In this document: positions 5,342-30,622 of the stretch, one piece after another
Layout: every line of letters starts with the position of its first letter
Position numbering within the stretch: position 1 is the first letter of the stretch
Notes under the pieces: generated by a model
The model's input: only the letters and a program-made list of their open reading frames with translations
The model's database searches: none
What the model was told of the DNA's origin: nothing
Source of the DNA: Pseudomonadota bacterium
GTDB taxonomy: Bacteria; Pseudomonadota; Gammaproteobacteria; Burkholderiales; SG8-39
NCBI GenBank assembly: GCA_031376265.1
Contig: JANMDK010000020.1
Location: forward strand, 1-59,931
Length of the DNA stretch: 59,931 nt
Direction: 5' to 3'
Program-made: the position numbers and the translations under genes

Positions 5342-5350
5342 GAGGATCCC

Positions 5351-13460: not shown

Positions 13461-13958
13461 ATGCTGCATGCCTACGAACCCGTCCGTGCATTGTGCGGTA
13501 GCGAGGCGCGCTTTCGCCTCGTGAGGGCGCTCTATGAGTCGCCGGGGACGGCATTCCACCTCCGGGGTCTCGCCGCGGCCGCCCGCGTGGATCCGAGCCA
13601 GGCCCACCGGCTGCTGCGCGAATTCGTGGCTGCGGGCCTGTGCGAAGAGATCCCCGCCGCGCCTTTCCGGAAGTTCCGCGCGGCCGCGGGCCATCCGCTC
13701 GCCGAAGCGCTTATCGAGACTTTCCGTGACGCGGCGCTCGAAGCCGGCAAGGGCGAAGAAGTCGACCTTGGCAAGGCGCCCGTGCTGCGGTCCCTTCTTT
13801 GGACCGGCCGCGAGCGAACGAGCATCCCCGCAGCCGAAGCTTTCAGGCACTACGAGAACAACTGGCGCCTCGTGCGGAACGCGGCCATGGGCGCCGGCGA
13901 GAAACGGCTGCTCGAAAGGCTCAAGAAGGATTATGGCCGCGGGTTGATGAATGGCTGA
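13461..13958 (+). CDS. wHTH-containing putative antitoxin
   Basis: N-terminal HTH (FHLRGLAAAARVDPSQAHRLL); C-terminal LRSLLW...YENNWRLV; overlaps the AbiEii-like gene. Confidence 0.65.
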   Translation: MLHAYEPVRALCGSEARFRLVRALYESPGTAFHLRGLAAAARVDPSQAHRLLREFVAAGLCEEIPAAPFRKFRAAAGHPLAEALIETFRDAALEAGKGEEVDLGKAPVLRSLLWTGRERTSIPAAEAFRHYENNWRLVRNAAMGAGEKRLLERLKKDYGRGLMNG

Positions 13959-14670
13959 GTTGCATCGTCCGCTGCATCGGCGCATTGCGGAGATCCTGTC
14001 GCGCATGGATGCCGGGTTCCTCGCCGAGGCGGAATGCTATTTCGGTGGCGGCACGCAATTGGCGATGTCGCACGGGGAATACCGCGAATCCCGCGACATC
14101 GATTTCCTCGTTTCGTCCGCCCGGGGAATCCGGGCGCTGCGCGAAACGGTCAGCGAGCGCTCGCTGGGAAAGCTATTCAAGGGCCGCATCAGCCTCGAGC
14201 GCGAGGTCCGCGCCGACCGCGACGCGATCCGCACGTTCATCAGGGAGTCGGCTGCGGCCGCGCCGATCAAGTTCGAGATCGTGTTCGAGGCGAGGATCGA
14301 GGTGGAGGGCGGCCTGGATCCGATGCTTGGCGTGCCGGTGCTGGGACTGCGTCACGCGATCGCAGAAAAGCTTCTCGCCAATGCCGACCGTGGACGGGCG
14401 AAGGAGCACCGGGCGCGGGACGTCGTCGACCTGGCTTTCATCAGCCTGCAGGCGGGCGCGGCGGATTTCCATGCCGGCCGGAAGATCGCAGAGGGAGCCT
14501 ACGGTGCAGTTGTCCTGAAAGAACTCGACGAGGTGCTGAAGATGCTTCGCCTGGACCCGAAGTTCCGCGCGCAGTGCGTGGCGGACCTGCTGATCGAGGA
14601 TCCCAAGGCGCTTGCCCGGGGGCTCGATAAACTGCAGGTCCTGAAGCGCACCCCCAATTCCAGGAACTAG
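13951..14670 (+). CDS. AbiEii/AbiGii family nucleotidyltransferase toxin
   Basis: YFGGGTQLAM, YRESRDIDF, IKFEI, EKLLANADR, RDVVDL. Confidence 0.85.
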   Translation: MAELHRPLHRRIAEILSRMDAGFLAEAECYFGGGTQLAMSHGEYRESRDIDFLVSSARGIRALRETVSERSLGKLFKGRISLEREVRADRDAIRTFIRESAAAAPIKFEIVFEARIEVEGGLDPMLGVPVLGLRHAIAEKLLANADRGRAKEHRARDVVDLAFISLQAGAADFHAGRKIAEGAYGAVVLKELDEVLKMLRLDPKFRAQCVADLLIEDPKALARGLDKLQVLKRTPNSRN

Positions 14671-16201: not shown

Positions 16202-16585
16202 CTAGCCGCCCGAGGTCGCAAAGACCTGGTTCAGCTCAGCCAGGCTCGCCGGCTTCAGCAGGAAATGGTCCATGCCGGCATCGGCCGCCTGCTGCTCGAA
16301 CTTGCGCTGCGCGTAGCCGGAGAGCGCCACGACCACCGCGGACCGGCCCGACTCTTCCCGCCGCATTTGCCGCGTGGCCTCGTACCCGTCGATGCCGGGG
16401 AGGCCGATGTCCATGAAGACGAATGCCGGGAGGTATTGGGGCACGACCTGTACCGCGGTCTCGCCGTCGGTGACGATCTGGACATCGAACCCCATCGTTA
16501 CGAAAAGATCCCTCAGGCTCTCGCCCGAGGCCTTGTCGTCTTCGACTATAAGGATGCGCCGACCGGCTCCGACCACGCTCATCAA
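16202..16585 (-). CDS. Single-domain response regulator (CheY-like)
   Basis: RILIVEDD, MDIGLPGIDG, ALSG, LLKPA. Confidence 0.9.
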   Translation of the reverse strand: MMSVVGAGRRILIVEDDKASGESLRDLFVTMGFDVQIVTDGETAVQVVPQYLPAFVFMDIGLPGIDGYEATRQMRREESGRSAVVVALSGYAQRKFEQQAADAGMDHFLLKPASLAELNQVFATSGG

Positions 16586-16652: not shown

Positions 16653-19298
16653 CTAGTTGCGATCCCTTCTCGGGGGAACGTACGGCGGCACGTAGGGGGG
16701 TGGGGGTACGACCACGGGCACAGGCACCGGCTGCGGCGCGAGCTGCACCGGCGGCTGGACGATTTCGAGGACCAGAGGTGCGGGGACGTTGACGCCGGCC
16801 ACGGTGAGATTGAAGGCGGGTGAGTGCGACAGGAACGGCGTCGCGCCGATCATCATGCCCGGCACGAATAGCACGGGCAGCACCTCGGAGGCGGCGACGG
16901 CCGCTTCGCCGGCAACCGGCGCAACGACATCCGGCGCAACGACAACCGGCGCCACGACAACCGGCGCCACGATCACCGGCAAGACCACCACGGCGGGTGT
17001 GATCGATGCTGTCGTCCGACCGACGATCGGGGCGCAGCACGTCGCCGGCAGTGCGAAGGCGGCCGCGTTTGCGCCGGCGAGCGTGAACCCGGTGAAGGTC
17101 ACTGTCTTGGCGACCCCGACGCCGGGGGTGTCGAAGGCGGCCGCGGCACCAGGCCCGGCCACCAGCGATACGCCGGCCGGCGTCCCCTTGAGTGCGGTAA
17201 AGACTGCGGTGGTGGTGCCGTCGAAAGCCTTGTCAGCGCCATCGGGGAAGACCAGCATGCGCGAGACGACCGGACCGGCGTTGCCGGTAAAGCGGCCCGA
17301 ATAGTCGGTAGGCGTCAGGTACGAGGTCGGGTTGTAGAAGATGTTGATCGGCGTGACGCCGGCCGGCCCGGTCGCGGTGATGAAGGTGCCGCCGGTGAAC
17401 GTAACGGTGCCGGCTGCCGCGCCCGGCCCTGTGCCGCCGTTGCCGGCGTTCAGGGTCAGTCCGCGAGGCACGCCGAAGTTGGAGAGGCTTTCGCCCACAG
17501 TCACGCTGCCGCGCGTGAGCGTAATCAGCGGCCCGGCATCGAAGGTATTGCTGAGGACGATGTCGTTGGCGGAGCACATCTGGATGTTGCCGTCCGTGGT
17601 GACGATGCCCGCGGTCTGCGAATTCACCGTCAGGCCGTTGCGGATGACGTTCACGTTTCGGCCGCCGGAGAGCAGCACGCTGCCGTTGGTCGTCGTGATC
17701 GGCGCGTTGACGTTCACGTCGCGCCCGCAGCACACGACGAGGTTTCCGCGGGTGGTGGTTATTGGTGCGTTTATGTTCACGTCCCTCGCGGCCAGCAACG
17801 AAAGCGTCGTGGGATTCGTCGGCGTCCACGTAAGCGCCGAATTCACGCTGATGTCGCCGGCGCCGTTGCCGGCTGCGCCGACGTTGGTCGTGGTGACGGT
17901 GATATTGGTCCCGCCGCCGGCTTCGAGTGCAACCCGCAATGCGCCCACGTCGACGGTTGCGGCGCTTACGCCGGAATTCGGGGTGAAGACGTTGCCGATC
18001 AGGGTCGCGTTGGTTGTGCCGGCGCCGATGATCACGTCGGCGGGGTCGAGGAGCCAGGTGCCGGCCTTACCGTTCGCGGCGCTGGCGTTGATGCTGATCC
18101 CGTTGACCTCGAGGGCGTGGCCGGACGTCTCGATCAGGCCGCCGTCGCCCCCCAGCGCGCCGCCCTTGGCCGAGATGCTGCCGGAAGCGCGCGTCGAATC
18201 GTTGGACCACAGCACCACGGTGCCGCCGTTGCCGCGTGAGATGGCATCCGCGGTGATTTTCGCGTCTGCGCTCATGTAAGTCGCGGAGGCGTTGGGCACC
18301 GCCGCGTTGTTGCCCTGGTAGCCGCCGCCGACGAGCACCGTTCCGCCGCCTGCGTCGCCGGACGCGTTGACCTGCGCGCCGAAGAGGCCGACATGATGGC
18401 CGGCCAACGTGATGTTGCCGCCGGTTTGTCCCGCGCCAAGGCCCGAGGCATCCAGCGTTCCCCCGGCGCTCACGGTGCCGTTTTGCATGTCGCCGACCAG
18501 CCGGATCGTCCCGTTGCGGGTATCGATCGTCTGCGCTTGGATCACGCCGGTGTTGTTAACCGCGCTTTGCAGGAGGCTTTCGGCCGACTTTGCCGTGAGC
18601 AGCACGGTCCCGCCGTCGGCGCGAATCATCCCGGAGTTCTGCGCCAGCGCGTTGACCGCGCCTTCGTTGACCGCGAGGTTGAGCAGGCCGTCACCCGCCA
18701 CGTCGAGCGTCATCGCATTGCCGGAGGCGAGCACGACGCTGCCCAGGCGCGCGGTGATGATCCCCTCGTTGCTCACGTTTGCGCCGAGCAGCGCGACGTA
18801 GCCGCCATCGGACGCATTGATCGTGCCGCGGTTGACGACCGAGCCGTTGCCGGCACCGTCGAATTTGTAGCGGCCGGCCATGAAATCGGCGTCCGAAATG
18901 TTCCGCGTCGAGGCCACCAGCCCCCCGACGTTTACCTGCGCACCGGGCGCAAAAAGAATCCCGTTCGGGTTGACCAGGAACACCTTGCCGTTCGCCGAAA
19001 GGCTGCCGAGGATATTGGAGGGATCGGCACCCAGCACGCGGTTCAATGCGACCGAGCTGCTGTTGGGCTGCACGAACCGCACCGCCTCGGCCGCACCGAT
19101 GCCGAAGGATTGCCAGTTGATCGCGGCATTCTGGCTCGATTGCGTGATCGTCGTCGTGCCGGGCGTCGCGACGATGCTCGCGCTGCCGGCCGAGACCGCG
19201 CCGCCGGTGGGCGCCGCGAACGCGGTCATGGCGTTCGAGACCGCAAGGCCGAGCGCGGCCATCCGGGTGAAGCGGAAATATCGATTGCGATTGTTCAC
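16653..19298 (-). CDS. TpsA exoprotein with filamentous-haemagglutinin N-terminal (TPS) domain
   Basis: Signal peptide, INWQSFGI, LNRV, VFLVNPNGILF, GGLIETSG, WLLDP; one YDG-like repeat (DKAFDGTT); Pro/Val-rich tail. Confidence 0.9.
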   Translation of the reverse strand: MNNRNRYFRFTRMAALGLAVSNAMTAFAAPTGGAVSAGSASIVATPGTTTITQSSQNAAINWQSFGIGAAEAVRFVQPNSSSVALNRVLGADPSNILGSLSANGKVFLVNPNGILFAPGAQVNVGGLVASTRNISDADFMAGRYKFDGAGNGSVVNRGTINASDGGYVALLGANVSNEGIITARLGSVVLASGNAMTLDVAGDGLLNLAVNEGAVNALAQNSGMIRADGGTVLLTAKSAESLLQSAVNNTGVIQAQTIDTRNGTIRLVGDMQNGTVSAGGTLDASGLGAGQTGGNITLAGHHVGLFGAQVNASGDAGGGTVLVGGGYQGNNAAVPNASATYMSADAKITADAISRGNGGTVVLWSNDSTRASGSISAKGGALGGDGGLIETSGHALEVNGISINASAANGKAGTWLLDPADVIIGAGTTNATLIGNVFTPNSGVSAATVDVGALRVALEAGGGTNITVTTTNVGAAGNGAGDISVNSALTWTPTNPTTLSLLAARDVNINAPITTTRGNLVVCCGRDVNVNAPITTTNGSVLLSGGRNVNVIRNGLTVNSQTAGIVTTDGNIQMCSANDIVLSNTFDAGPLITLTRGSVTVGESLSNFGVPRGLTLNAGNGGTGPGAAAGTVTFTGGTFITATGPAGVTPINIFYNPTSYLTPTDYSGRFTGNAGPVVSRMLVFPDGADKAFDGTTTAVFTALKGTPAGVSLVAGPGAAAAFDTPGVGVAKTVTFTGFTLAGANAAAFALPATCCAPIVGRTTASITPAVVVLPVIVAPVVVAPVVVAPDVVAPVAGEAAVAASEVLPVLFVPGMMIGATPFLSHSPAFNLTVAGVNVPAPLVLEIVQPPVQLAPQPVPVPVVVPPPPYVPPYVPPRRDRN

Positions 19299-19310
19299 GC
19301 TGAGTCCTGT

Positions 19311-20969
19311 CTAGAAGTACTTCACGCCTTGGATCCAGAATCGGCTTTTCGCGTCGGGGGCTGAAGTCGCGACCGCGTTGCCGAGCTTGTGCGCCCAATA
19401 CGCGCGCACGACGAAATTGTTGTAGTCGGCCCAGGTCAGGCCGACACCGGCGCCGCTGAGCGTCCTGCTGTTGTTGCCGGGCAGCCACGGGTTCTTGTTG
19501 ATCGTGACGCTGCCGGTGTCGACGAAGCCGACGAGGTGCATCTGGCCGACCAGGTTGGCCGGTTTCGGCAGCAGCATGCGGGCTTCGAGGTTCACTACGT
19601 AGCCTTCATCTGCGTAGGCCTCGCCCTCGGGATAGGCGCGAACTGCGTACGCGCCGCCGAGCGACATTTTCTCGGAGATGTCGAGGTTCTTCGAGGCCAC
19701 CTGCCCGCGGATCGCGGCATAGAGCGAGAAAGGCCCGCCGAGCGTCTGCAGGCGCATCGCGTGGAAGCCGAACTTGTCGTAGTGCCCGTTGCTGCGCGCC
19801 GTCAGCGCATCGGCGGCGCGCGCGGCCGGCGTCTCGATGTCCAGCGACCCCGTGGACCAGGTCCCCGAATAGGCCGTGAAGCCGCCACCGCCCCAGTTGT
19901 CGCGGCGGTCGCCGGCGAGGCCGAAATGTGCAACGCCGATCTTGCGGTCGGTGGTTGCATTCGTCAGGTCGATGCGGTCGTGGAAAGTCTTGGCGTCGAA
20001 CCCGGCCAGCGCATACAGGTTGGTGTTGCGCGAGCGGATCAGCGGGTAGCTGCCGTAAATGCTCGCGATCTGCGCGGTGCCATGCGCGCCGAGGTTGGCG
20101 AACTCCCGGCCGAGCCGGTATTCGAGCGCCGTAAAAGCGACCCCGAGCGTCGCCCGGCCGAATTGCGCCTGGTACGAGATGCGGCCGTAGGTCAGGCCCG
20201 ATGAGGCCAGCGCGCGCACCGAAAGCACGTCGCCCTGGCCCGCGAGGTTGTTGAGGTTGACGGTGCCGCCGACGCGGTATTCGCCGGTGTAGCGGTTGCC
20301 GTGGTTATCCGCTTCGACGCTGCCGTTCACGCGGCGCCCTGGGACCACGTCGACGATGAGGTCCGATGTGCCGGCCGCCTGGCCCGGCACAAGCGAGGAA
20401 CGCACGCCGATGCCCGGGATGTCCGAGAGCAGCAGCAGGCGCTCCTCGAGCGGCGCAATGGTGATCGTATCGCCGGCGTTTAGCCCGCTTAACAACCCGT
20501 TGGCGAGCCCGTCGTTCAGGTTCGACGAATTGCGCAGCACGACCTGCCCATAGCGGCCTTCGATGACCTGGATGGCCACCGCGCCGTCGCGAATGTTCTG
20601 GGCGGGCAGGTAGGCCTGGGCGACGATGTACCCGTTGCGGTTGTAGTGGTCGGTGATCCGAGCCGCCATGGCTCGCAGTTCGGCCAGGCTCAACTCCCGG
20701 CCGGGCAGGAAGCCGGCGATTTCGAGCAATTCGCCGACCGAGTAGACGGTTTGCCCGGTGATCGAAAGGGTATTGACCCGGATGCGGGTGTCGTCCGCAA
20801 GCGGTGCGGCCGGCTTGCCGCCCTGCTCGATGCGCACGTCCGGCAAGGGCCGTTGCGGGGCCGGCGCAGGGGGTACCTGCTGGATCAGCCCGCCGGAGCT
20901 GGGGGGCTGCTGGGCGAACGCGGCCGTGCCGAATACGGCGATCGACGCGAGAAGGATGGTTCTTTTCAA
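19311..20969 (-). CDS. TpsB (ShlB/FhaC/HecB family) outer-membrane transporter
   Basis: Signal peptide, POTRA motif (YNRNGYIVAQAYLPAQ), DNHGNRYTG, GGAYAVRAY, C-terminal Phe. Confidence 0.92.
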   Translation of the reverse strand: MKRTILLASIAVFGTAAFAQQPPSSGGLIQQVPPAPAPQRPLPDVRIEQGGKPAAPLADDTRIRVNTLSITGQTVYSVGELLEIAGFLPGRELSLAELRAMAARITDHYNRNGYIVAQAYLPAQNIRDGAVAIQVIEGRYGQVVLRNSSNLNDGLANGLLSGLNAGDTITIAPLEERLLLLSDIPGIGVRSSLVPGQAAGTSDLIVDVVPGRRVNGSVEADNHGNRYTGEYRVGGTVNLNNLAGQGDVLSVRALASSGLTYGRISYQAQFGRATLGVAFTALEYRLGREFANLGAHGTAQIASIYGSYPLIRSRNTNLYALAGFDAKTFHDRIDLTNATTDRKIGVAHFGLAGDRRDNWGGGGFTAYSGTWSTGSLDIETPAARAADALTARSNGHYDKFGFHAMRLQTLGGPFSLYAAIRGQVASKNLDISEKMSLGGAYAVRAYPEGEAYADEGYVVNLEARMLLPKPANLVGQMHLVGFVDTGSVTINKNPWLPGNNSRTLSGAGVGLTWADYNNFVVRAYWAHKLGNAVATSAPDAKSRFWIQGVKYF

Positions 20970-21065
20970 GGCAGGTCTCCCAACTGAGGCCCGAGTTTGT
21001 CCTACACGCCGTAGACAAACTGTTCGCCAACTAACATAGGACGAAAAGCTAAAAACCCCCTAGAT

Positions 21066-21785
21066 TCAACTCTCTGGCAACGGGGCCAGAAGGCGGTCGA
21101 ATTCCAGTTTAACCACTCCGTAGCACTCGCAGACAGCCTTTTCGACGCCGGGCCGGTCGAGGACGTCGATGCGGCCCCGGGCGTAGCTGATGAGCCCGGC
21201 CCGCTGGAGCTTGCCGGCCGCCTCGGTGACCCCTTCCCGGCGCACGCCAAGCATGTTGGCAATGAGCTCCTGCGTCATGCGGATCGATTGCGTCGGCAGC
21301 CGGTCCAAGCTCAGCAGCAGCCAGCGGCAGAGCTGCTGCTCGACCGTATGGTGCCGGTTGCACACCGCGGTCTGCGTCATCAGCGTGATCAGCGCCTGCG
21401 TATAGCGCAGCAGCAGCCGGAGCATCGGGCCCGCGCGGTTGAACTCCTCCTTGAGCAGCCGCGAGCGCATGCGATAAGCGAAGCCCGCGCTCTGCACAAC
21501 GGCGCGGCTGGGCGTGGTTTCCCCGCCCATAAAGAGCGAGATGCCGAGGATGCCTTCGTTGCCGACCACGGCGATTTCGGCGGAGGCGCCGTCGGCGAGC
21601 ACGTAGAGCAGCGACACGATCGAGGTTGTCGGGAAGTAGACATGCGACAGGCGGCCGCCGGATTCGTAGATCGCCTGGCCGAGCTTCAGGGGAACCAACT
21701 CGAGGTCCGGCGCGAGGCGCTGGAACACGTCCGCGGGCAATGCGGCAAGCAGGCAATTCTGCAGCGGGTTGTGGGGGCTCGGCAT
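21066..21785 (-). CDS. Crp/Fnr family transcriptional regulator (paralog 1)
   Basis: cNMP-binding-like domain and HTH MTQELIANMLGVRREGVTE; C-terminal CECY. Confidence 0.92.
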   Translation of the reverse strand: MPSPHNPLQNCLLAALPADVFQRLAPDLELVPLKLGQAIYESGGRLSHVYFPTTSIVSLLYVLADGASAEIAVVGNEGILGISLFMGGETTPSRAVVQSAGFAYRMRSRLLKEEFNRAGPMLRLLLRYTQALITLMTQTAVCNRHHTVEQQLCRWLLLSLDRLPTQSIRMTQELIANMLGVRREGVTEAAGKLQRAGLISYARGRIDVLDRPGVEKAVCECYGVVKLEFDRLLAPLPES

Positions 21786-21950
21786 GGCAACGAATTGTCG
21801 CCAACGCAGGTAGAACTATCTGTTCGCTATCAGACATATGGGAAAATTTTCGTCTCTGTTCGGTACCAAACATAGGTGCGTATTTTTTATGTGCGTTACC
21901 CCGCATAAGGGTGTAATCTTCTTTCCCCCCCAATTTCAGCGAGGCTGCAC

Positions 21951-22715
21951 ATGACGACGAAAGTCTCGGCAGCCAGGCCTCCCCCCAGGACGAATCACCT
22001 GCTCGCGGCGCTGTCCGACACGGACTTCGAGCGGCTGTCACCCCACTTCGACTACGTCGACATGCCGCTTGGCTCTTCGCTGAGCGAGTCGGGCAGCCGC
22101 ATGGACCACGTGTACTTCATTACCGACGGCATCGTTTCGCTGCTCTATGTGATGGAGAACGGCGCGTCGGCCGAGATAGCCGTGACCGGAAACGAAGGCA
22201 TCGTCGGCATATCGCTCTTCATGGGCGGCGAAAGCACCACCAGCCGCGCGATCGTGCAGAGCGAAGGGCACGCCTACCGGCTGCCTGCCCGGTTCCTGCG
22301 CGCCGAATTCGAGCGCGGCGGCGAATTGCAGCACCTGCTGCTGCGCTTTACCCAGGCGCTGATCACGCAGATGTCGCAGACCGCGGTGTGCAACCGCCAC
22401 CACGAGGTCGAGCTGCAGCTCTGCCGCTGGCTCCTGCTCAGCCTCGACCGGCTGCCCACGAACGAACTGCACATGACGCAGGAACTGATCGCGAACATGC
22501 TCGGCGTGAGGCGTGAAGGCGTGACGGAGGCGGCGGGCCGCTTGCAGGAAGCAGGGCTCATCGAGTACCGCCGAGGTCACATCAAGGTGCTCGACCGGCC
22601 GGCCTTGGAGAAGCGCGTCTGCGAATGTTACGCGGTCGTCAAGAAGGAATCCGACCGCCTGCTGAATTACGTGGCTTCCAAGAGCACAGGGGCGTCCGGA
22701 TCCCACGTTCGATAG
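21951..22715 (+). CDS. Crp/Fnr family transcriptional regulator (paralog 2)
   Basis: Same architecture; VCNRHH, GVRREGVTE, CECY. Confidence 0.92.
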   Translation: MTTKVSAARPPPRTNHLLAALSDTDFERLSPHFDYVDMPLGSSLSESGSRMDHVYFITDGIVSLLYVMENGASAEIAVTGNEGIVGISLFMGGESTTSRAIVQSEGHAYRLPARFLRAEFERGGELQHLLLRFTQALITQMSQTAVCNRHHEVELQLCRWLLLSLDRLPTNELHMTQELIANMLGVRREGVTEAAGRLQEAGLIEYRRGHIKVLDRPALEKRVCECYAVVKKESDRLLNYVASKSTGASGSHVR

Positions 22716-22757
22716 CGAACAGACGGAGCCCCGGATGGGGGGCCACCATGCGTCACA

Positions 22758-23465
22758 GTGGCCGCCATCCCCAACATCCTGCTTCGCCTTCTACCGCGCA
22801 AGGACTACCTTCGCTTTGCTTCCGGACTGACGCCGGTCACACTCGAATTCGGGAAGGTTCTCTACGAGCCGGGCAAGCCGATCCGTGATGTGTATTTCCC
22901 TAGCGCCTGCCTGATATCGCTGCTCAAGATCGCCGCGGGACATCGTGCCCTTGAGGTGGGCATGGTCGGCCCGGAGGGCATGCTCGGCATCCCGATCGCG
23001 CTTGGCATCGGGAGCTCTCCGATTCGCGCGCTGGTGCAGGGGGAGGGAACCGCACTGCGCATGGGCAAGGCCCGCTTCCTGAAAGAATTCAATTCGTGCG
23101 CGCCGCTGCACCGGATCGTCCTGACCTATGTGCACGCGCTGATGGGCCAGATCGCGCAGACCGCGGCGTGCAACCGGTTCCACGTCGTCGAGGGCCGGTT
23201 GGCCCGCTGGCTGTTGATGACCCGGGATCGCATGGCTTCGGGCGATTTCCGCATGACGCACGAATTCCTCTCGCACATGCTCGGCGTGCGGCGCGAAGGC
23301 GTCAGCGAAGCCGCGGCGGGTTTCCAGGAGAAGGGCCTGATCGAGTACAGCCGCGGGAAGATCCGGATCCTCAATCACCGTGGGCTCGAGGCGGCCGCGT
23401 GCTCCTGCTACGGCGAATCGCCCAAGGGGCCGGAAGCGATCCCGGCCTGGCGGCCCGCGCGTTAG
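22758..23465 (+). CDS. Crp/Fnr family transcriptional regulator (paralog 3)
   Basis: More divergent; ACNRFH, GVRREGVSE, CSCY. Confidence 0.9.
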   Translation: MAAIPNILLRLLPRKDYLRFASGLTPVTLEFGKVLYEPGKPIRDVYFPSACLISLLKIAAGHRALEVGMVGPEGMLGIPIALGIGSSPIRALVQGEGTALRMGKARFLKEFNSCAPLHRIVLTYVHALMGQIAQTAACNRFHVVEGRLARWLLMTRDRMASGDFRMTHEFLSHMLGVRREGVSEAAAGFQEKGLIEYSRGKIRILNHRGLEAAACSCYGESPKGPEAIPAWRPAR

Positions 23466-24217
23466 CCGGCGACGACCTTAAGGGTCTCGACGCGTGGGAT
23501 ATCCGACATCAGGCGATCGAACTCGGTCTTGACCACGGCATAGCACTCGCAAGAAAGCTTTTCCAGGCCTTCGCGTTTCAGGACGGTGATGTGCCCGCGC
23601 CGGTAATCGATGACGCCGTCCACGCGCAGCCGCCCGGCAGCTTCGGTGATCCCTTCGCGGCGCACCCCGAGCATGCTGGCGACGAGTTCCTGCGTCATCG
23701 TCAATTGTCCCGAAGGCACGCGGTCGAGGGTCACCAGTAGCCATCGGCACAGTTGCTGCTCGACCGAATGGTGCCGGTTGCACACGGCGGTCTGGGTCAT
23801 CTGCGTGATCAGCGCCTGCGTGTAGCGCAGCAGCAGGCGAAGCATCGGCCCGGCGCGGTCGAATTCCTCCATGAGTCGCCGACGTTCGAGGCGATAGGCG
23901 AAGCCGGCCGTCTGGACCACCGCGGAACTCGGGGTCGTGTCCCCGCCCATGAAGAGCGAGATGCCGACGACCCCCTCGTTGCCGACGCCGGCGATCTCGG
24001 CCGAATCGCCGGATTCGATCACGTAGTGGAGCGACACGATGGACGAGGTCGGGAAATACGCGTGCTGGAGCTGGCCGCCGGGTTCGTAGAGGACTTGGCC
24101 GAGTTTCAGCTCGACCAGCTCGAGGTTCGGGGCGAGGCGGTCGAATTCGGCCTTCGGCAGCGCCGCAAGCAGGTGGTTCCGGTTCGGGCTGTGAAGCGAG
24201 GGATCGACGATAGCCAT
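23462..24217 (-). CDS. Crp/Fnr family transcriptional regulator (paralog 4)
   Basis: VCNRHH, GVRREGITE, CECY; last gene of the kinase-receiver operon. Confidence 0.92.
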   Translation of the reverse strand: MAIVDPSLHSPNRNHLLAALPKAEFDRLAPNLELVELKLGQVLYEPGGQLQHAYFPTSSIVSLHYVIESGDSAEIAGVGNEGVVGISLFMGGDTTPSSAVVQTAGFAYRLERRRLMEEFDRAGPMLRLLLRYTQALITQMTQTAVCNRHHSVEQQLCRWLLVTLDRVPSGQLTMTQELVASMLGVRREGITEAAGRLRVDGVIDYRRGHITVLKREGLEKLSCECYAVVKTEFDRLMSDIPRVETLKVVAG

Positions 24218-24229
24218 CGGGCGCCCGGA

Positions 24230-25051
24230 TTATTTCTTGTGGCTGGTTTCGACGCCGATGCCGCGGTACCCGATGAAGCGGCAGGACTGGTTGAACATCG
24301 GCTCGCCGCTCACCTGGTATCTCTGTTTCGTCCCGTCGGCATTCATGCGGCTGAAATTGAAGTCGAGGAAAGGCTGCCGAGAAGCGATTGTCGCCTGGAG
24401 CTTTTCCCTTTCGGCGTCGTTCCAGCCGTCGTTATTGGCGCTGGGCGTGGTTCCCGCTAGGTTCGATACGCGCATTCCGAGCATTTCGAGCACCGGCCCG
24501 GAAACCTTGGTGAAGTTGCCGTTTTCGTCCTGTTCCCAATACCAGTCGGACGCAAGCTCGGTCAGGCTTCGATAGCGGGCCTCGCTTTCGCGCAGCTCCG
24601 CGGTGCGCTCCTTCACCGTCTGCTCGAGTTCGCGGCTGTAATTGGCGAGCCGCTTGTAAAGGAGCCGCACCTCGAGCATGTTGCGGATGCGGGTGCGCAC
24701 TTCCACGAGGTCGAAAGGCTTCGAGACGAAATCCCTTGCGCCGGCCTGCAACGCGCGGATCTTGTGCCCCGGCTGGGCGGTGATCACCAGCACCGGGAGA
24801 TAGCCGTCGACCAGATTGATTTTCAGGCCTTCCATGACCTGGAACCCGTCCATGCCCGGCATCTGCAGGTCGAGCAGGATCAAGTCGTAGTTGTTCTTGC
24901 GGTGCAGGGCGCAGACCTCGAGCGGGTTCATTGTCGAGGTGACCGCGGTATATCCGGATTCGGCGAGCATCTGCTCCAGCAGGCCGACGTTGGATTCCTG
25001 GTCGTCGACGATCAGGATGCTGGCGTTGAGGATGGCGTCGTCGTCGATCAT
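24230..25051 (-). CDS. Response regulator with REC, coiled coil and PAS domains and no output domain
   Basis: ILIVDDQ, LDLQMPGMDG, SKPF; RYRSLTELASDWYWEQD...SGEP...GYRG PAS. Confidence 0.85.
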   Translation of the reverse strand: MIDDDAILNASILIVDDQESNVGLLEQMLAESGYTAVTSTMNPLEVCALHRKNNYDLILLDLQMPGMDGFQVMEGLKINLVDGYLPVLVITAQPGHKIRALQAGARDFVSKPFDLVEVRTRIRNMLEVRLLYKRLANYSRELEQTVKERTAELRESEARYRSLTELASDWYWEQDENGNFTKVSGPVLEMLGMRVSNLAGTTPSANNDGWNDAEREKLQATIASRQPFLDFNFSRMNADGTKQRYQVSGEPMFNQSCRFIGYRGIGVETSHKK

Positions 25052-26706
25052 TGCGAGAGTTCCTTTTTCGCCCGGACCGCGGCAGTTTTCGAGTATGCCA
25101 ATGCTACATCGAGGGCTTCCATGAACTGGCTGACCACGATCGGCTTGGTGAGGTAATTGAAGAATCCCGCTTGGAGCGCCTTCTCGATGTCGCGCGGCAC
25201 CGCATTCGCGCTCAAGGCAATGATCGGGATGTGCGCAGTCGCCGGAGTGAGGCGCAGGATCTCCATGGCTTCCAGGCCGCTGATGCCCGGCAGGTTGATG
25301 TCCATGAGGATAACCTCGGGCAGGTAGGCGCGCGCGAATTCGATGCCGAGGTTGCCGTCGGCCGCCGAAAGAAGCCGAAGTTCCGGCCGCCGCGCGACGA
25401 GCTGCTCGACCAGCTCGAGGTTGGCTGGGTTGTCCTCCACATAGAGGATCGTCCGAAGCGGCGCGCCCGGCGGGAGTTGCGGGCGGATCGTTTCCTTATG
25501 ATCGGCCTCGTGCGCCTCCAGCGCCGGGGCGCTCGTGAGGGTCAGGTCGATCCAGAACACGCTGCCGACGCCGACGGTGCTCTCCACGCCAATCTGCCCG
25601 CCCATGAGCTCGACCAGCCGCTTGGTCACTACCAGCCCGATGCCGGTACCTTCCTCGGCGGTCGCTTCCTTTCCCAGCCGGTTGAAAGGCTGGAAAAGCT
25701 GCGAAACCTGCTCCGGCGTGAGCCCGACGCCGGTGTCGCGAACGCTGATGTGGACGGTGTTCGCGGCGCTCATTGCCCACTCGACGGCGACCGAGCCGCC
25801 CGGCCGGTTGTACTTGACCGCGTTGAAGAACAAATTGATCAGCACTTGCTTGACGCGGGTGCGGTCGGCGTTGACGAACAGCGGCTTGTCGAATCTCGGG
25901 AAGGTCATCGCAATGCCGCGCTTGTGCGCCTGGGGCTCGACCATTGCGCGGCATTCGAGCATGACCTCGGTGAGCGAAACCGGCTCGCCCGACAGGGTCA
26001 CTTTGCCCGACTCGATCAGCGCGAGGTCGAGGATCTCGTTGATCAGGTCGAGCAGGTACCAGCCGGCCTTGAGGATCTGCTCGAGGTTGCGCTTCTGCGA
26101 AATGGTGGGCGCGGGGAGGCCGGTTTCCATGAGCTGAGCAAATCCGAGGATTGCGTTTAGCGGCGTGCGCAGCTCGTGGCTCATGCCGGAGAGGAAATCG
26201 GTCTTCGCCTGGCTCGCTTTATCGGCTGCGACCATCGCACGCTTGAGCTCGGACTCGACGCGCTTCCTGACCGAGTTGTTGGTGCCGATCAGCAGGTAGC
26301 CAATGAGGGCGCCGTCGTCGTCCAGCAAGCCGGTAATCGACACGATCGCCGGAAAGCGGTTGCCGTCCTTGCAGATGTAGGTCAGCTCGTAGATATCTTC
26401 GATGCCCCGCGAGGCCTTGTAGGCAAGGGCCTCGAACCCCGGCGCGATCGGCGTGCGGAACTCGACGCTCAACGTGGCGGCGCGGGCCTTGACCTCATCG
26501 GGGTCGTGGATGTCGCTCGGGTTGATCTTGTTGACGACTTCTTCCGCCGTGTAGCCGAGCATGCGCTCGGCGCCGACGTTGAAGAACTGGATGATGCCTT
26601 TCTCGTCGGTCGCGATGATCGAAAACTTGGCGCTTCTGAGGATCGCATTCTGCAGCGCGCCGGTCTTCATTCTTGCCTTGGTGAGGGAAGGGTTTACTGG
26701 AGGCAT
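25048..26706 (-). CDS. Cytoplasmic hybrid histidine kinase (PAS-HisKA-HATPase-REC)
   Basis: FNVGAERMLGY PAS, MSHELRTPLN H-box, NAVKY, DTGVG, GTGIGL, C-terminal receiver; start 26706 or 26670 rather than 27258. Confidence 0.9.
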   Translation of the reverse strand: MPPVNPSLTKARMKTGALQNAILRSAKFSIIATDEKGIIQFFNVGAERMLGYTAEEVVNKINPSDIHDPDEVKARAATLSVEFRTPIAPGFEALAYKASRGIEDIYELTYICKDGNRFPAIVSITGLLDDDGALIGYLLIGTNNSVRKRVESELKRAMVAADKASQAKTDFLSGMSHELRTPLNAILGFAQLMETGLPAPTISQKRNLEQILKAGWYLLDLINEILDLALIESGKVTLSGEPVSLTEVMLECRAMVEPQAHKRGIAMTFPRFDKPLFVNADRTRVKQVLINLFFNAVKYNRPGGSVAVEWAMSAANTVHISVRDTGVGLTPEQVSQLFQPFNRLGKEATAEEGTGIGLVVTKRLVELMGGQIGVESTVGVGSVFWIDLTLTSAPALEAHEADHKETIRPQLPPGAPLRTILYVEDNPANLELVEQLVARRPELRLLSAADGNLGIEFARAYLPEVILMDINLPGISGLEAMEILRLTPATAHIPIIALSANAVPRDIEKALQAGFFNYLTKPIVVSQFMEALDVALAYSKTAAVRAKKELSQ

Positions 26707-26771
26707 CGGGATCCGGAAAAGTGCATGCAACCGACGGGTCGCGAATGGTGGCCGTTTTGCAACCATTTGTA

Positions 26772-26841
26772 TGTTCGTCAACGAACATTGCCCGGAAGGG
26801 TTCGCCAACGCACAGACCGCGTGGGGAACGGCCCCTAATCT
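26772..26841. promoter_or_regulatory. Divergent promoter region with two TGTTCG-N4-CG(A/C)ACA boxes
   Basis: TGTTCGTCAACGAACA 26772-26787; GGTTCGCCAACGCACA 26799-26814; TAATCT 26836-26841. Confidence 0.7.
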
Positions 26842-26892
26842 GGGCGCATCCGAATTCACGCAGTCAACCAGCCACACAAAAGGGAAATCGAC

Positions 26893-27111
26893 ATGAAGAC
26901 CATCAAAAGCATTGCAGCCACCACGCTGTCCCTCGCCCTCCTCGCGGGCCTTGCCGGTTGCGCAGGCATGTCCGGCCAGGATCGTAACACCGCCATCGGC
27001 GCCGGCGTCGGCGCAGTGGGCGGCGCGGTCCTCACGGGCGGCAGCCCCATCGGTACGGTCGGCGGCGCCGCAGTCGGCGGCCTGATCGGGCACGAAGTCG
27101 GCAAACGCTAG
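26893..27111 (+). CDS. Glycine-zipper lipoprotein (OsmB-like)
   Basis: Lipobox LAGC; RNTAIGAGVGAVGGAVLTGG...GGAAVGGLIGHEVGK. Confidence 0.88.
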   Translation: MKTIKSIAATTLSLALLAGLAGCAGMSGQDRNTAIGAGVGAVGGAVLTGGSPIGTVGGAAVGGLIGHEVGKR

Positions 27112-27131
27112 AACGCAAGTCTCGGAAATCG

Positions 27132-27157
27132 CCGGCCCCGCGGGGCCGGTTTTTTTT
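27132..27157 (+). terminator. Rho-independent terminator
   Basis: CCGGCCC-CGCG-GGGCCGG followed by T8. Confidence 0.88.
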
Positions 27158-27330
27158 GGCGAAATCCACCGCCAGCACTTACAAAAAATAAATGAACCAA
27201 ATGCGCTTCCATGTTCGCTGACGTACGGACGGCACGGTTTAGCGAACGTAATCTCCACTCAGACACAACAGGCACACGCGGGAATCTTTCCGAGGCGGAT
27301 GCCGAAGCAGTACCAAACCGGAGTTACCGC

Positions 27331-28266
27331 ATGAAAACCGAAATTCGCATGGCCCTACTGGTCCTCGCCTCAACGTCGGCGACCGCTTTCGCGCAGGACA
27401 TCCCGCAGTGCGCAGCCCTCTTCGACAGCGCTAACAACTATTTCACGGCGAACAACGCACCGGCGAACGCGCCGAACCGCCAGTGCTTCCTCACAGTGAT
27501 GCCGAAAGACGGCCCGAATTCGCTCGCCGGCTTCCCGCAGCTCGCGAGCTACCCCTCGCCGCAGATGGGCGAAGGCACCTATGAAATCCTCCTCAGCGGC
27601 GGTGGCGGCGGTGGCGGCGGCGGCGGATTCCTCTCTTCCGGTGGTGGCGGCGCAGGCGCGGTGCCCTCGAAGACCTCGCAATACCTGAGCCCGGGCGTCT
27701 ACAAGCTGACGATCGGCACCGCGGGCCGGGGTGGCGTTAACGGCGGCGACGGCGGCAACGGCAACCCGACCAGCGTGACCAAGGCTTATACGAATGAGTT
27801 GATCGCCGGATTCTCGGGCGCCGAGAACATGGTGGTGGCATCGGCCGGCAGCCGGTCGCTGGGCGGCGGCAGCTCGATGGACAGCTCCGGCGCGCGTGGC
27901 GCCAATGGCCAGGGCAATGGCGGCGCGGGCGGACGCCTGCCGGATCGCAATGGAAACGGCGAGATCCCGTCGCAGTCGGGCGGAATGATGCAAGTGGCCG
28001 GCGTGCCCACGGGTGCCCCTGGCATGGGCGGTTCGCATGACGGCGGTGGCGGAGGCGGCGCAGGCTTCGGCAACGGCAGCAATGGCAAGTCCACCGACAG
28101 CTTCGGCGACAAGAGGCTCGGCGACCAGGGCGGCAACGGCTTCGTGAGGATCACCCCGATCCAGATCGCGCAGGCCACGCCGGTCGCGCCGATGGCGGCG
28201 CCGATCGTTGCGCCGGCCCCGGCGCCTTATGTGGCCCCGGCTGCCGCAAAAAGAGATCGTAACTAA
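27331..28266 (+). CDS. Secreted glycine-rich-domain protein with Pro/Ala tail ending KRDRN
   Basis: Signal peptide (ATAFA); GGGGGGG...GGGGAG...LTIGTAGRGG...GGNGFVRIT glycine-rich domain pattern. Confidence 0.75.
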   Translation: MKTEIRMALLVLASTSATAFAQDIPQCAALFDSANNYFTANNAPANAPNRQCFLTVMPKDGPNSLAGFPQLASYPSPQMGEGTYEILLSGGGGGGGGGGFLSSGGGGAGAVPSKTSQYLSPGVYKLTIGTAGRGGVNGGDGGNGNPTSVTKAYTNELIAGFSGAENMVVASAGSRSLGGGSSMDSSGARGANGQGNGGAGGRLPDRNGNGEIPSQSGGMMQVAGVPTGAPGMGGSHDGGGGGGAGFGNGSNGKSTDSFGDKRLGDQGGNGFVRITPIQIAQATPVAPMAAPIVAPAPAPYVAPAAAKRDRN

Positions 28267-28338
28267 AGACCAGGCAGTTTCTACCGGCCCCGAGCTGTGC
28301 GTGCGCAGCCCGGGGCCTTACTTCGTACGGCAGGGTAG

Positions 28339-29136
28339 ATGACAAAAATAAAATATTTCGGGCCCGCATTGCGCATGATGGTCGCGCTTGCGTGCTTCTC
28401 CGCGACGACGGCCTTGGCGCAGGCGCCGGACGCAGCGCCGCCGGACGCAACCCAACCGCCAGCTGCTATCCCCTCGTTGCCGCCGATTCCAGAAGCGGCA
28501 CCGATGAAGGAACCCGAACCTCCGGTGAAGGAACCCGAGCCCCCGCTGCGCGCCGACTTCAAGGACGAGAACCCCGGCGACCAGGCGCGCAACGCGGCGG
28601 ACACCGCGCTGCAGACGCGGGACCATGGCGGCAAGCCTTTCGCGATCGTCGACAAGATCGCGGCCAAGGTCTACGTATTCGATGTCGAGGGCCGGCTGGT
28701 GGCCGCCGCCCCGGCTTTGCTCGGCATTGCCATCGGCGACCACATCGCGCCCGGCGTCGGCAACATGGACCTGGCGAAGATTCCGCTGAGGGACCGCACT
28801 ACGCCCGCGGGCCGCTTCGAAGCCGCGCTGGGAAAAAACTACCACGGCAAGCAGATCCTCTGGGTCGACTACGACTCGGCGCTCTCGATGCACCCGGTGA
28901 TCAATACCGTGCCCTCCGAGCGCCGCCCGCATCGCCTCGCAACGCCGACCCCCCTGGACAACCGCATTTCGTTCGGCTGCATCAACCTGCCGATCCCTTT
29001 CTTCAAGGACGTGATCGCCCAAGTCTTCAAGGACTCCGGCGGAGTCGTCTACATCCTGCCGGAGCTCCTCTCGGGCGAAGCGCGAGCCGTGCTCAAGTCC
29101 CCCGTCCCCAAAGGCCGCAGTACCGCCGGGCGATAA
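28339..29136 (+). CDS. L,D-transpeptidase-like (YkuD-fold) secreted protein
   Basis: Signal peptide, Pro-rich linker, IVDK, TTPAGRF, H...DNRISFGCIN catalytic-like motif. Confidence 0.7.
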   Translation: MTKIKYFGPALRMMVALACFSATTALAQAPDAAPPDATQPPAAIPSLPPIPEAAPMKEPEPPVKEPEPPLRADFKDENPGDQARNAADTALQTRDHGGKPFAIVDKIAAKVYVFDVEGRLVAAAPALLGIAIGDHIAPGVGNMDLAKIPLRDRTTPAGRFEAALGKNYHGKQILWVDYDSALSMHPVINTVPSERRPHRLATPTPLDNRISFGCINLPIPFFKDVIAQVFKDSGGVVYILPELLSGEARAVLKSPVPKGRSTAGR

Positions 29137-29233
29137 ACGGCAGGCCGCTCGCATAGCCGGGCCAGCTCTCGTATTTCGGCAGCTTGAATTCCTTCTCGGC
29201 GGTGTCCCAGCACTTGCCGGCCTGGAGTGCGGT
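29093..29233 (-). pseudogene. Possible 3' remnant of a lost gene (resembles C-termini of MBL-fold hydrolases)
   Basis: ALQAGKCWDTAEKEFKLPKYESWPGYASGLPFIARRYCGLWGRGT* reads as a natural C-terminus but has no credible 5' part; family resemblance is from recall only. Confidence 0.35.
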
Positions 29234-29443
29234 GCGTGAGATGTCTTCCTCCCAGAAGAGCGTTGCGGGATTTTCGCCGCGCAGTGGCACGCGGCGCGCC
29301 GCAAGTGTCGGGGAGATTTCGCAGAGAGGTCAAGCGTGCTCGGCCCGCCGGACCCGCGTGTATGATCGACGCGACTTCGCGACGCAACAAACGCGGAATA
29401 AAACCCCGTCGGGAGAGGTGAATGGCGGCCGGCCCATGTTCGC

Positions 29444-30622
29444 ATGAGTAAACGCTGGCTGGTCCTCGGGGTGCTCGCCTTCGCGCGCATCGCGATGGGC
29501 TTCCAGTTTCAGGCGGTGGCGTCGGTGGCGCCTTTCCTCGTCGACGAATTCCGCATCGACTACGCGGCGGTCGGCACGCTGATCGGCCTGTACCTCCTGC
29601 CCGGCATCGTGCTCGCGCTGCCCGGCGGTTTCCTTGGCCGGCGCTTCGGCGAGAAGCGCATGGTGCTGATCGGCCTTGGCCTCATGGCCGTCGGCGGCGC
29701 CGTGAGCGCAGCGGGCACTTCGTACGCGATGCTCATCATCGGCCGCGCGATCACCGGCGTCGGCGTGGTGCTGCAGTTCGTGCTCATGACCAAGATGCTC
29801 TCGGACTGGTTCAAGGGCCGCGAACTCATCTTCGCGATGTCGCTGTACCTCAACGGCTGGCCGCTCGGCATCGGCCTGGCGCTGGTGACCCAGCCCGGCC
29901 TCGCGGCTGCGTCGACCTGGCGCACCGTGTTCTTTGCAACGGCGATCCTCTCCGCGGCGACGCTCGCGGTGCTAGCGCTGCTGTATCGCAGCCCGGCCGA
30001 CGCGCCGAAAGCGCAGCCCGGCGCCGCAGCTTACGGCCTGTCGATGCGCGAGACAGTTTTGGTGAGCCTCGCGGGGCTCATCTGGACTTTCGTCAACGCC
30101 GGCTGGGTGGTGTGCGTGAGTTTCGCGCCGGGTTACCTGCGCACGCAGGGCCTTTCCTTGAGCGAGTCCGCCGCGATCACGAGCCTGGCCACCTGGCTCG
30201 CGATCATCGGCGTGCCGGTCGGCGGCTGGCTGGCCTCGCGCTGGCGACGGCCGGACACGCTGATCATTGCTTCGACGGTCATCGGCGGCCTCGCGATGCT
30301 GGCGGTGCCGTACACCTCCGCCTACGTGCTCTGCTTCTCGGTCATCGGCCTGATCCTCTTCCTGCCGGCCGGGATCATGGCGGCGCTGCCGATCGAGGTG
30401 CTGCGCCCGGAAAACCGAGCGACCGGGCTCGGCCTTTTCTATACGTGGTGGTACGCCGGCGTGGCCGCGCTGCCGCCGGTCGGCGGGTGGACCTATGACG
30501 TGAGCGGCCAGGCTTCGGCGCCGGTGCTCTACGCGAGCGGCCTCGTTTTCCTCACGCTCGGGGCGCTGCTGGCTTTCCGGCTCTGCCAGCGCGTGCCGGC
30601 GGGCGCAAGGTTGGTACGATGA
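29444..30622 (+). CDS. MFS transporter
   Basis: About 12 hydrophobic segments; motif A GFLGRRFGEKR. Confidence 0.88.
   Translation: MSKRWLVLGVLAFARIAMGFQFQAVASVAPFLVDEFRIDYAAVGTLIGLYLLPGIVLALPGGFLGRRFGEKRMVLIGLGLMAVGGAVSAAGTSYAMLIIGRAITGVGVVLQFVLMTKMLSDWFKGRELIFAMSLYLNGWPLGIGLALVTQPGLAAASTWRTVFFATAILSAATLAVLALLYRSPADAPKAQPGAAAYGLSMRETVLVSLAGLIWTFVNAGWVVCVSFAPGYLRTQGLSLSESAAITSLATWLAIIGVPVGGWLASRWRRPDTLIIASTVIGGLAMLAVPYTSAYVLCFSVIGLILFLPAGIMAALPIEVLRPENRATGLGLFYTWWYAGVAALPPVGGWTYDVSGQASAPVLYASGLVFLTLGALLAFRLCQRVPAGARLVR

Follow-up and report, generated by a model that had tools for sequence, protein, structure and literature searches.

A C-terminal tail shared by unrelated exported proteins and paired with the gene of a divergent YkuD-fold enzyme: a candidate peptidoglycan-anchoring tag of diderm bacteria

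The window, i.e. the whole 59,931-nucleotide stretch of DNA analysed here, belongs to a genome of the Burkholderiales (a 4.8-Mb assembly of 400 contigs, labelled G000, with a GC content of approximately 65%) and encodes two unrelated exported proteins that share a short C-terminal tail, one of them directly followed by an enzyme gene. The first tailed protein, encoded on the minus strand (16653..19298), is a TpsA-type two-partner-secretion exoprotein of 881 amino acids (aa) with a signal peptide, a TPS domain (Pfam PF05860, 142 bits), a YDG domain (PF18657, 31.5 bits), a match to the NCBIfam model TIGR01901, and a Pro/Val-rich C-terminal spacer ending in the tail. Its partner, the outer-membrane transporter TpsB (19311..20969, minus strand), matched ShlB (PF03865, 82.4 bits) and POTRA_2 (PF08479, 64.7 bits), so that both hallmarks of two-partner secretion, an exoprotein with a TPS domain and, next to it, an Omp85-type transporter with ShlB and POTRA domains, are present in the interval 16653–20969. 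The second tailed protein (27331..28266, plus strand) is an exported glycine-rich protein of 311 aa, which passed the Gly_rich_2 model PF21722 with 32.4 bits against a gathering cut-off of 24.3 (residues 122–314); most of its homologues carry the same label in precomputed annotation. The open frame extends back to 27211, but translation probably begins at the Met at 27331, since the homologues begin MKTEIRMALL. After a spacer of 72 nt follows the gene of a divergent YkuD-fold (L,D-transpeptidase-like), predicted periplasmic cysteine enzyme of 265 aa (28339..29136, plus strand), in which a signal peptide and a Pro-rich linker precede the catalytic domain.

The TpsA protein ended in ...VVPPPPYVPPYVPPRRDRN-stop and the glycine-rich protein in ...VAPAPAPYVAPAAAKRDRN-stop. 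Translation delimited the C-terminal tags as PYVPPYVPPRRDRN followed by a TAG stop (16653..16697, minus strand) and PYVAPAAAKRDRN followed by a TAA stop (28225..28266, plus strand), and the last codons were AGA AGG GAT CGC AAC TAG in TpsA vs. AAA AGA GAT CGT AAC TAA in the glycine-rich gene. An earlier note on this DNA had described both tails, with their synonymous codon differences, and had placed signal peptides on both proteins; the tails were confirmed in the DNA as it had written them, and both N-termini were signal-peptide-like. In the whole assembly, only three of 29,494 six-frame open reading frames (ORFs) of at least 80 aa ended in DRN, all three with a Pro-rich ...PYV(A/P)P...(K/R)RDRN: the two tailed proteins of the window and, on contig C300, a paralogue of the glycine-rich one. 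With D, R and N in the five remaining orders, the counts of ends among the same ORFs were 1, 1, 2, 1 and 1. A fourth copy was a fragment cut by the start of contig C298 (1–186, plus strand) and ending ...APAPAPAPYIAPAAPRRDRN; its N-terminal part was cut off, and no enzyme gene lay downstream of it. In total, only four open frames of the genome combined a Pro-rich spacer with (K/R)RDRN-stop, namely TpsA, the two glycine-rich paralogues and this contig-edge fragment. A loose form of the tail pattern ended 36 of 48,440 six-frame ORFs (0.07%), four of which were the real tails.

The tail was retained over considerable evolutionary distance. It was present in 73 of the 120 glycine-rich homologues listed (of 134 found), with an exact DRN end in 70 of the 73, and persisted down to 36% identity, where the linker of these proteins could no longer be aligned. 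In G014, a different genome of the same genus, the orthologous TpsA (56% identity over the last 300 aa) ended ...EVYVPPYMPPRKDRN. The shared tail is thus confirmed as real, beyond chance, and as extending well past the window. As a separate observation, an exported Ser/Thr/Gly-rich disordered protein on contig C28 of the window's genome (416–878, plus strand) ended ...APAPRRMKKDRG; this end is possibly a variant tail with Gly in place of Asn, resembling the disordered carriers with RADRN-type tails found beside the enzyme in other Burkholderiales.

Within the genus, tail and enzyme gene went together. All 13 tailed glycine-rich genes, from seven genomes, were directly followed by an enzyme homologue, and the only two enzyme paralogues in the window's genome each lay after a glycine-rich gene. 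A profile search of 18 genus genomes returned 22 enzyme places in 13 genomes, of which 18 were directly preceded by a tail-ending ORF, two had the order enzyme/glycine-rich/enzyme, and two were situated at contig starts. Five tail-less, lipoprotein-type glycine-rich paralogues had no adjoining enzyme gene. In genomes lacking a tailed glycine-rich gene, the enzyme was preceded by a tailed TpsA (G010, G016, G007 and G011) or by an unassigned tailed ORF (G014, ending ...PPKKDRN). The TpsAs preceding the enzyme that had TPS and YDG domains, with or without ESPR, ended ...YVPPVRERKPDRN, ...KVDRN and ...KADRN, while an end ...RKPDRN belonged to a C-terminal fragment at a contig edge, grouped with the TpsAs without Pfam assignment. 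Since other tailed proteins precede the enzyme where the tailed glycine-rich gene is absent, the partner of the enzyme is the tail and not the glycine-rich domain. The arrangement of one glycine-rich gene between two enzyme paralogues was seen in two genomes (G009, contig C171, 4109–6997, locus L019; G012, contig C197, 4496–7321, locus L020).

Genomes were also searched with a profile built from an alignment of tails (A2). The profile recovered the three full-length tails in the window's genome; it matched none of five genus genomes without the enzyme (completeness 88–97%) vs. five of five with it. It missed the copy on contig C298, the tail on contig C9 of G014 and the RADRN-type tails, which are not Pro-rich, and a match on contig C270 (E 4) was spurious. 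Because the profile is insensitive and the genomes are kin, the genome-level co-occurrence is supporting evidence only.

Relatives of the enzyme were detected at a minimum of 582 loci in species-representative genomes, and the groups named among them included Burkholderiales, Rhodocyclaceae, Chromatiaceae, Syntrophobacteraceae, Geobacteraceae, Syntrophorhabdus, Desulfarculales, Moraxellaceae and others. Seventy-seven of these loci were examined, and at 53 a same-strand ORF directly upstream ended in (K/R)-x-(D/G/E/P/A)-R-(N/H/Y)-stop (56 ORFs in total); the exact DRN criterion alone gave 40 loci. The variants encountered were GRN, DRH, DRY, PRN, ERH and ARH. When all 77 loci were recounted under one rule, the tail gene was upstream at 55 and nearby, i.e. 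within 3 kb, at 12, with none at five, a contig edge at four, and one locus without a motif ORF. At nine Chromatiaceae loci a convergent gene approximately 1 kb away encoded a lipoprotein of about 45 aa ending ...YEPKPDRN. An order-level sample of 150 genomes contained five with the enzyme, and five of their six enzyme places were preceded by a tail ORF, with the ends RADRN, RVDRN, RADRN, KADRH and RMDRN. Weak matches of the tail profile in other genomes of this sample were real tails at none of 11 loci, which made the profile unusable as a census. The earlier note had staked its proposal on co-occurrence of DRN ends with the transpeptidase subfamily, and this was borne out by gene order, both in the genus (all 13 tailed glycine-rich genes and 18 of the 22 enzyme genes paired) and at the 53 of 77 loci of the wider set, as well as at the level of whole genomes. 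Conservation of the tag and its pairing with the enzyme gene are thus observed directly.

Three of the loci showed particular features. On a megaplasmid of Variovorax paradoxus VAI-C (L164, 3080–3373), a 97-aa gene ending ...PARADRN preceded a gene annotated as "L,D-transpeptidase"; the tail gene itself was annotated "proteophosphoglycan ppg4", a label that is probably an artefact of low-complexity sequence. The two genes of this cultured strain bear the tags INQ48_38540 and INQ48_38545, and Thiocapsa roseopersicina DSM 217 (L059) is another cultured carrier. The plasmid STP1 of Sphingomonas taxi (L165) carried an alphaproteobacterial relative of the enzyme (3297–4073), preceded by a 91-aa lipobox protein (2985–3260) that is coiled-coil-like (only sub-threshold coiled-coil Pfam matches) and ends ...RARRPRG; its architecture resembles that of Braun's lipoprotein (Lpp), with a further variant of the end. 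On a contig of a Burkholderiales metagenome-assembled genome (L075, 1–5732), a tailed TpsA ended at 2898 and a frame with the enzyme motif (4362–5732) began with TPS-like sequence, which may reflect a chimeric assembly or a rearrangement of the locus.

The composition of the tag was derived from 53 unique tails. Arg occupied position −2 in all 53, and the terminal position was Asn in 47, His in four and Tyr in two; position −3 was Asp in 43 and Gly in seven, and position −5 Lys in 44 and Arg in nine, although positions −5, −3, −2 and −1 are informative only within their allowed sets because the selection pattern had constrained them. Position −4 was variable (Q, R, K), Pro was found at positions −7 and −10 in 34 tails each, and a Y-V-x-P element was frequent approximately 9–12 residues from the end. 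No Lys was present in the last eight residues of eight tails, and the TpsA of the window also ends RRDRN. Judged from these sequences, the tag would consist of a Pro-rich spacer, often with Y-V-x-P, and, as the free C-terminus, (K/R)-x-(D/G)-R-(N/H/Y). Its terminal residue (N, H or Y) sets it apart from Lpp-type proteins, in which a Lys at or next to the C-terminus is linked to meso-diaminopimelic acid (meso-DAP), and it also differs from the tripartite LPXTG and PEP-CTERM signals, as the motif itself is the C-terminus. No NCBIfam or Pfam model covered the tail in the 4 + 15 + 25 proteins scanned.

The carriers of the tag were diverse. They included TpsA exoproteins with TPS, ESPR, YDG, MBG_2 or collagen repeats (Pfam), Gly_rich_2 proteins, OmpA-type eight-stranded barrels (OmpA_membrane or OMP_b-brl) that match only the N-terminal barrel half of OmpA, small Gly/Tyr-rich proteins, disordered signal-peptide-bearing proteins rich in Gln, Ser and Thr, and, in Syntrophobacteraceae and relatives, lipobox mini-proteins of 60–114 aa. 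In the Chromatiaceae mini-lipoproteins the mature part amounts to about 25 residues: the lipobox Cys, a short Pro/Ala stretch, and ...YEPKPDRN. That DRN ends would be found on exported proteins had also been anticipated, and several unrelated exported families indeed carry them. What the carriers appear to have in common, as read from their sequences, is export, usually an outer-membrane anchor, and then an extended spacer with the tag. In 29 of the 120 listed glycine-rich homologues, the OmpA C-terminal domain (PF00691) replaced the tail. Because this domain fills the same position, and because some carriers consist of a lipid anchor, a spacer and the tag only, the tag was read as a wall anchor.

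The enzyme encoded at 28339..29136 was assigned on the basis of its catalytic motif and its predicted fold. The catalytic signature of YkuD enzymes comprises a His and a Cys within (S/T)-x-G-C-h-(N/R). In all 15 aligned family members, His185, S211, G213, C214 and N216 (S-x-G-C-I-N) were invariant, placing this signature in the enzyme, and (S/T/P)xGC was kept in 149 of the 150 best library representatives, the exception being truncated. A search of the PDB with Foldseek, using the AlphaFold2 model of the enzyme, gave 57 matches at E ≤ 0.001, and those listed were almost all L,D-transpeptidases with a probability of 1.00, including LdtMt2, LdtMt1, Ldtfm and Bd1075; the predicted model thus has the YkuD fold. 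Given the fold match and the conserved motif, and its distinctness from canonical YkuD and LdtGo proteins, it was named a divergent YkuD-fold (L,D-transpeptidase-like) cysteine enzyme, with the activity itself a prediction. The four canonical YkuD genes of the genome lie elsewhere and are distinct from it. An identity as an LdtGo-type LD-1,3-transpeptidase was considered and rejected, as the family profile matched no L,D-transpeptidase chain among PDB sequences at E ≤ 1 and LdtGo proteins are described in the literature as detectable YkuD-domain proteins (His245/Cys264). The spacing between His and Cys is 29 residues vs. 19 in LdtGo.

Family size, in clusters at 50% identity, was 1,773 at E ≤ 0.001, 1,246 at E ≤ 1e-10 and 506 at E ≤ 1e-30. 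Neighbouring Atlas clusters of the enzyme were labelled "hypothetical protein", and none of the NCBIfam models covered the enzyme or the tail. The earlier note had called the gene L,D-transpeptidase-like, and fold and motif bear this out, whereas the Pfam score does not. A separate feature of the family is an insert of approximately 25 residues between the catalytic His and Cys (residues 186–210), with low pLDDT and invariant R195, R196, R199, D207 and R209, which may be a family-specific substrate-capping loop.

The enzyme core (residues 75–250, family alignment A1) was modelled in complex with the 30-residue tail of the glycine-rich protein (alignment A2). Three runs scored 0.66, 0.65 and 0.64, vs. 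0.00 for the best of three controls; the runs agreed in at least 95% of contacts, and the pLDDT of the partner was at least 57. Residues K26 to N30 of the tail were placed at the active site, with predicted contacts of Arg(−2) and Asn(−1) to Cys214 and residues 211–213, and of Asp(−3) to His185 and residues 181–183. Docking of the tail on the catalytic Cys is therefore what the model predicts. In the benchmark, 58 of 80 solved complexes and 2 of 110 mismatched pairs attained this score mark, counts that are only a rough guide because custom alignments were used.

On balance, the tail probably serves as a C-terminal sorting or anchoring tag that is read by the dedicated divergent YkuD-fold enzyme, most likely tethering proteins to peptidoglycan. 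The earlier note had proposed a periplasmic DRN tag, perhaps read by the transpeptidase and serving peptidoglycan tethering, processing or proteolysis, by analogy with Braun's lipoprotein; gene pairing and the docking model support the proposed reading of the tag, while the analogy fails chemically because Lys is not conserved in the tail. After export by Sec, most of the tagged proteins would stay in or at the outer membrane, retained by a lipid, an OmpA-type barrel or a TpsB partner, with the spacer extending into the periplasm. There the enzyme would most likely form a covalent link between the C-terminus and peptidoglycan. The cassette of the window would consist of the glycine-rich protein and the enzyme, and TpsA, approximately 9 kb away, would be served in trans.

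As to the chemistry, a reaction in which the protein is the acyl donor was preferred on account of the invariant Arg(−2), the narrow choice of terminal residue, the dispensability of Lys, and the modelled docking of the tail on the Cys. From textbook peptidoglycan chemistry we infer that D-R-N-COOH could imitate the donor stem D-iGlu/meso-DAP/D-Ala-COOH. In this reaction the Arg-Asn bond would be opened by the catalytic Cys, with Asn leaving the protein as D-Ala leaves the tetrapeptide stem, and the new Arg C-terminus of the protein would be passed to the free amine of meso-DAP, a sortase-like reaction on an L,D-transpeptidase fold. A diderm sortase-like system of this kind, in which D-R-N mimics the donor stem, Asn is cleaved off, and Arg is joined to meso-DAP, so that TpsA adhesins, OmpA-type barrels, glycine-rich proteins, disordered polypeptides and lipopeptides of about 25 residues become covalently stapled to the wall, is a tentative proposal that we consider plausible without regarding it as probable. 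In that case no smaller staple between outer membrane and wall than these lipopeptides would be known. The chemistry stands a substantial chance of being new.

A number of points weigh against these interpretations. The donor chemistry would require cleavage of an L-L bond, between Arg and Asn, whereas the bond cut by known L,D-transpeptidases is an L-D one; to our knowledge, no YkuD enzyme takes a ribosomal protein as acyl donor. All steps beyond gene pairing rest on inference or on a model, and the passing docking score may reflect structures already solved for L,D-transpeptidases bound to stem peptides. For the enzyme, no Pfam match was obtained at E ≤ 10, i.e. it fails the YkuD cut-off (PF03734, 23.4 bits), and two of three relatives tested gave sub-threshold YkuD matches of 16.7 and 14.8 bits; the family profile found no L,D-transpeptidase chain among PDB sequences at E ≤ 1, the only match being a chance one to a ribosomal protein (E 0.65). 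The mean pLDDT of the enzyme model was low at 66.5, with the core above 90, and the TM-scores of the Foldseek matches were only about 0.3. For the pairing, the 53 of 77 loci were counted with a tail pattern that was widened after the data had been seen, one upstream match (a 47-aa ORF at L094) looks like chance, and 5 to 11 of the 77 loci, some at contig edges, had no tail gene. Related genomes are not independent, and the lack of tails in genomes without the enzyme is weak evidence because the tail profile misses tails that are not Pro-rich. Finally, neither the TpsA of the window nor its orthologue in G014 adjoins an enzyme gene, and action in trans is assumed for them.

Among the other explanations considered, the one that best survived retains the chemistry of Braun's lipoprotein: the tetrapeptide stem of peptidoglycan would be the acyl donor and a tail Lys (−5 or −4) the acceptor, with D-R-N serving for recognition only. 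In a 2025 review on L,D-transpeptidases, all listed links between protein and peptidoglycan use an amine of the protein as acceptor, and 44 of the 53 tails do have Lys at −5. However, nine have Arg there, eight are free of Lys in their last eight residues (among them the RADRN-type tails), and the TpsA of the window ends RRDRN; the (nearly) invariant positions are Arg(−2) and the terminal residue, and it is these, not Lys(−5), that the complex model places at Cys214. Since Lys is not conserved, this explanation was ranked below the donor reaction, and we regard it as unlikely.

It appears rather improbable that the enzyme acts by hydrolysis, as an amidase like DpaA or a protease like the L,D-carboxypeptidases, and trims or removes the tail to mature, release or destabilize its carriers with no covalent anchoring. 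The YkuD fold does include hydrolases; DpaA detaches Lpp, and Bd1075, among the fold matches of the enzyme, has been described as an L,D-carboxypeptidase. The predicted placement of the last residues on the Cys would suit cleavage no less than transfer. Lipoproteins of about 25 residues, made up of lipid anchor, spacer and tail, however, have no domain to mature or release, and the peptidoglycan-binding OmpA_C domain in the same position of sister proteins points to anchoring. A non-covalent docking peptide, which would recruit the enzyme for local remodelling of peptidoglycan around a TpsB pore or barrel, or block the active site as a regulator, would be expected to give the same gene pairing and predicted binding. 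It would not need to sit at the extreme C-terminus or to keep its last residues so strictly across phyla, and disordered secreted proteins and mini-lipoproteins would be odd targets for local remodelling, which makes this function quite improbable. A functionless tail arising by chance or by compositional convergence of Pro/Ala-rich linkers has in its favour only the low-complexity spacers and the GC-rich genome (~65%), and is hardly credible: it is already contradicted by the pairing, the tail profile and the background frequency (the loose pattern in 0.07% of six-frame ORFs vs. directly upstream of the enzyme at 53 of 77 loci in several phyla), and by tail codons that differ at synonymous sites.

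Other features of the window concern the surroundings of these genes. The 72-nt spacer between the glycine-rich and YkuD-like genes contains a GC-rich hairpin with a 13-bp stem (28286..28317, plus strand; minimum free energy −33.3 kcal/mol). Its z-score was −1.77 and 11 of 200 shuffles folded equally well, and it may be an attenuator or terminator that could lower read-through into the enzyme gene. A 390-aa antisense frame (28318–29490) was dismissed as a shadow ORF of the GC-rich plus-strand gene, whose product has conserved homologues. The TpsAB pair and the glycine-rich cassette are separated by a dense set of regulatory genes (16205–16585 and 21951–27258), which may control these envelope genes. 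Its members are a single-domain response regulator (RR) just downstream of TpsA (16205–16585), three regulators of the Crp/Fnr type, a hybrid histidine kinase and an RR-PAS protein. Upstream of the region, a gene with an AbiEii-type nucleotidyltransferase toxin domain (type IV toxin-antitoxin) was located at 13951–14667 on the plus strand.

The module of tag and enzyme is widespread, and no description of it was found in the searchable literature; it is allied both to YkuD-mediated anchoring and to C-terminal sorting tags. Full-text searches for the motif strings and for the concept, which extended neither to supplements nor to subscription-only papers, returned nothing relevant, and in a 2026 envelope review, searched by term, only Lpp was mentioned. 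Ties between outer membrane and wall outside the Enterobacteria are only partly known. If the anchoring function is correct, it would add to them a tag-plus-enzyme module with at least 582 loci and approximately 1,250 protein clusters at E ≤ 1e-10, spanning Burkholderiales, Rhodocyclales, Chromatiaceae, Syntrophobacteraceae, Geobacteraceae and other groups, and would give a role to an enzyme family mostly labelled "hypothetical protein". It would also explain how some two-partner-secretion adhesins could stay on the cell, and would define a set of minimal staple lipoproteins. Should the donor chemistry hold as well, the L,D-transpeptidase fold could use a ribosomal protein as acyl donor, and the tag would be a short, genetically encodable means of fixing proteins to Gram-negative walls.

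The TpsA and TpsB of the window have the defining TPS, POTRA and ShlB domains of FhaB/FhaC-type two-partner secretion. The C-terminus of FhaB stays periplasmic during secretion. We know of no peptidoglycan-directed tag or YkuD partner described for TpsA proteins, and the literature searches found none. The OmpA C-terminal domain (PF00691) occupies the same position as the tag, after a glycine-rich domain or OmpA-type barrel and a Pro-rich hinge; it is, however, a folded domain of approximately 100 residues that acts non-covalently and requires no partner enzyme, whereas the tail, at roughly 5–15 residues, goes together with an enzyme gene.

The closest enzymatic parallels are Lpp with LdtA/B/C of E. 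coli, OutB with Ldt03/84 of Dickeya dadantii, and Lpg1810 of Legionella, in each of which a cysteine enzyme of the YkuD family joins the C-terminal end of an envelope protein to peptidoglycan. Like Lpp, some of the tagged proteins are small lipoproteins of outer-membrane type. The 2025 review names six attached proteins (Lpp, OutB, LimB, BbpA, Omp25 and Lpg1810), none with a D-R-N tag, and gives as acceptors Lpp, OutB, LimB, Lpg1810 and the N-termini of beta-barrel proteins. As described there, the known cases end in dipeptides that contain Lys (Lys-Arg, Lys-Lys, Lys-Thr), in contrast to the new tag, which ends D-R-N and in which Lys is dispensable. The Lpp-type cases employ housekeeping L,D-transpeptidases; here a separate family below the Pfam cut-off is encoded beside the substrate, and, unlike in those cases, the tag occurs on many protein families. 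Brucella Omp25 and Coxiella BbpA are reported as outer-membrane barrels tethered by L,D-transpeptidases in bacteria without Lpp, and as linked to meso-DAP through the mature N-terminal amine, whereas the barrels described here carry the tag on a C-terminal extension.

In its organization, the module resembles sortase A/LPXTG, exosortase/PEP-CTERM, rhombosortase/GlyGly-CTERM and myxosortase/MYXO-CTERM, which likewise combine a short C-terminal tag on unrelated exported proteins with a dedicated cysteine transpeptidase-like enzyme encoded nearby. It differs from sortase and exosortase systems in the YkuD fold of the enzyme, in its diderm hosts, and in that no NCBIfam sorting-signal model matches the tail. 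Unlike in sortase-type signals, no hydrophobic helix or basic stop-transfer sequence follows the motif, and the free C-terminus is itself the motif. The logic of the sortases, with the protein as acyl donor and a wall amine as acceptor, would nevertheless be common to both if the preferred chemistry applies.

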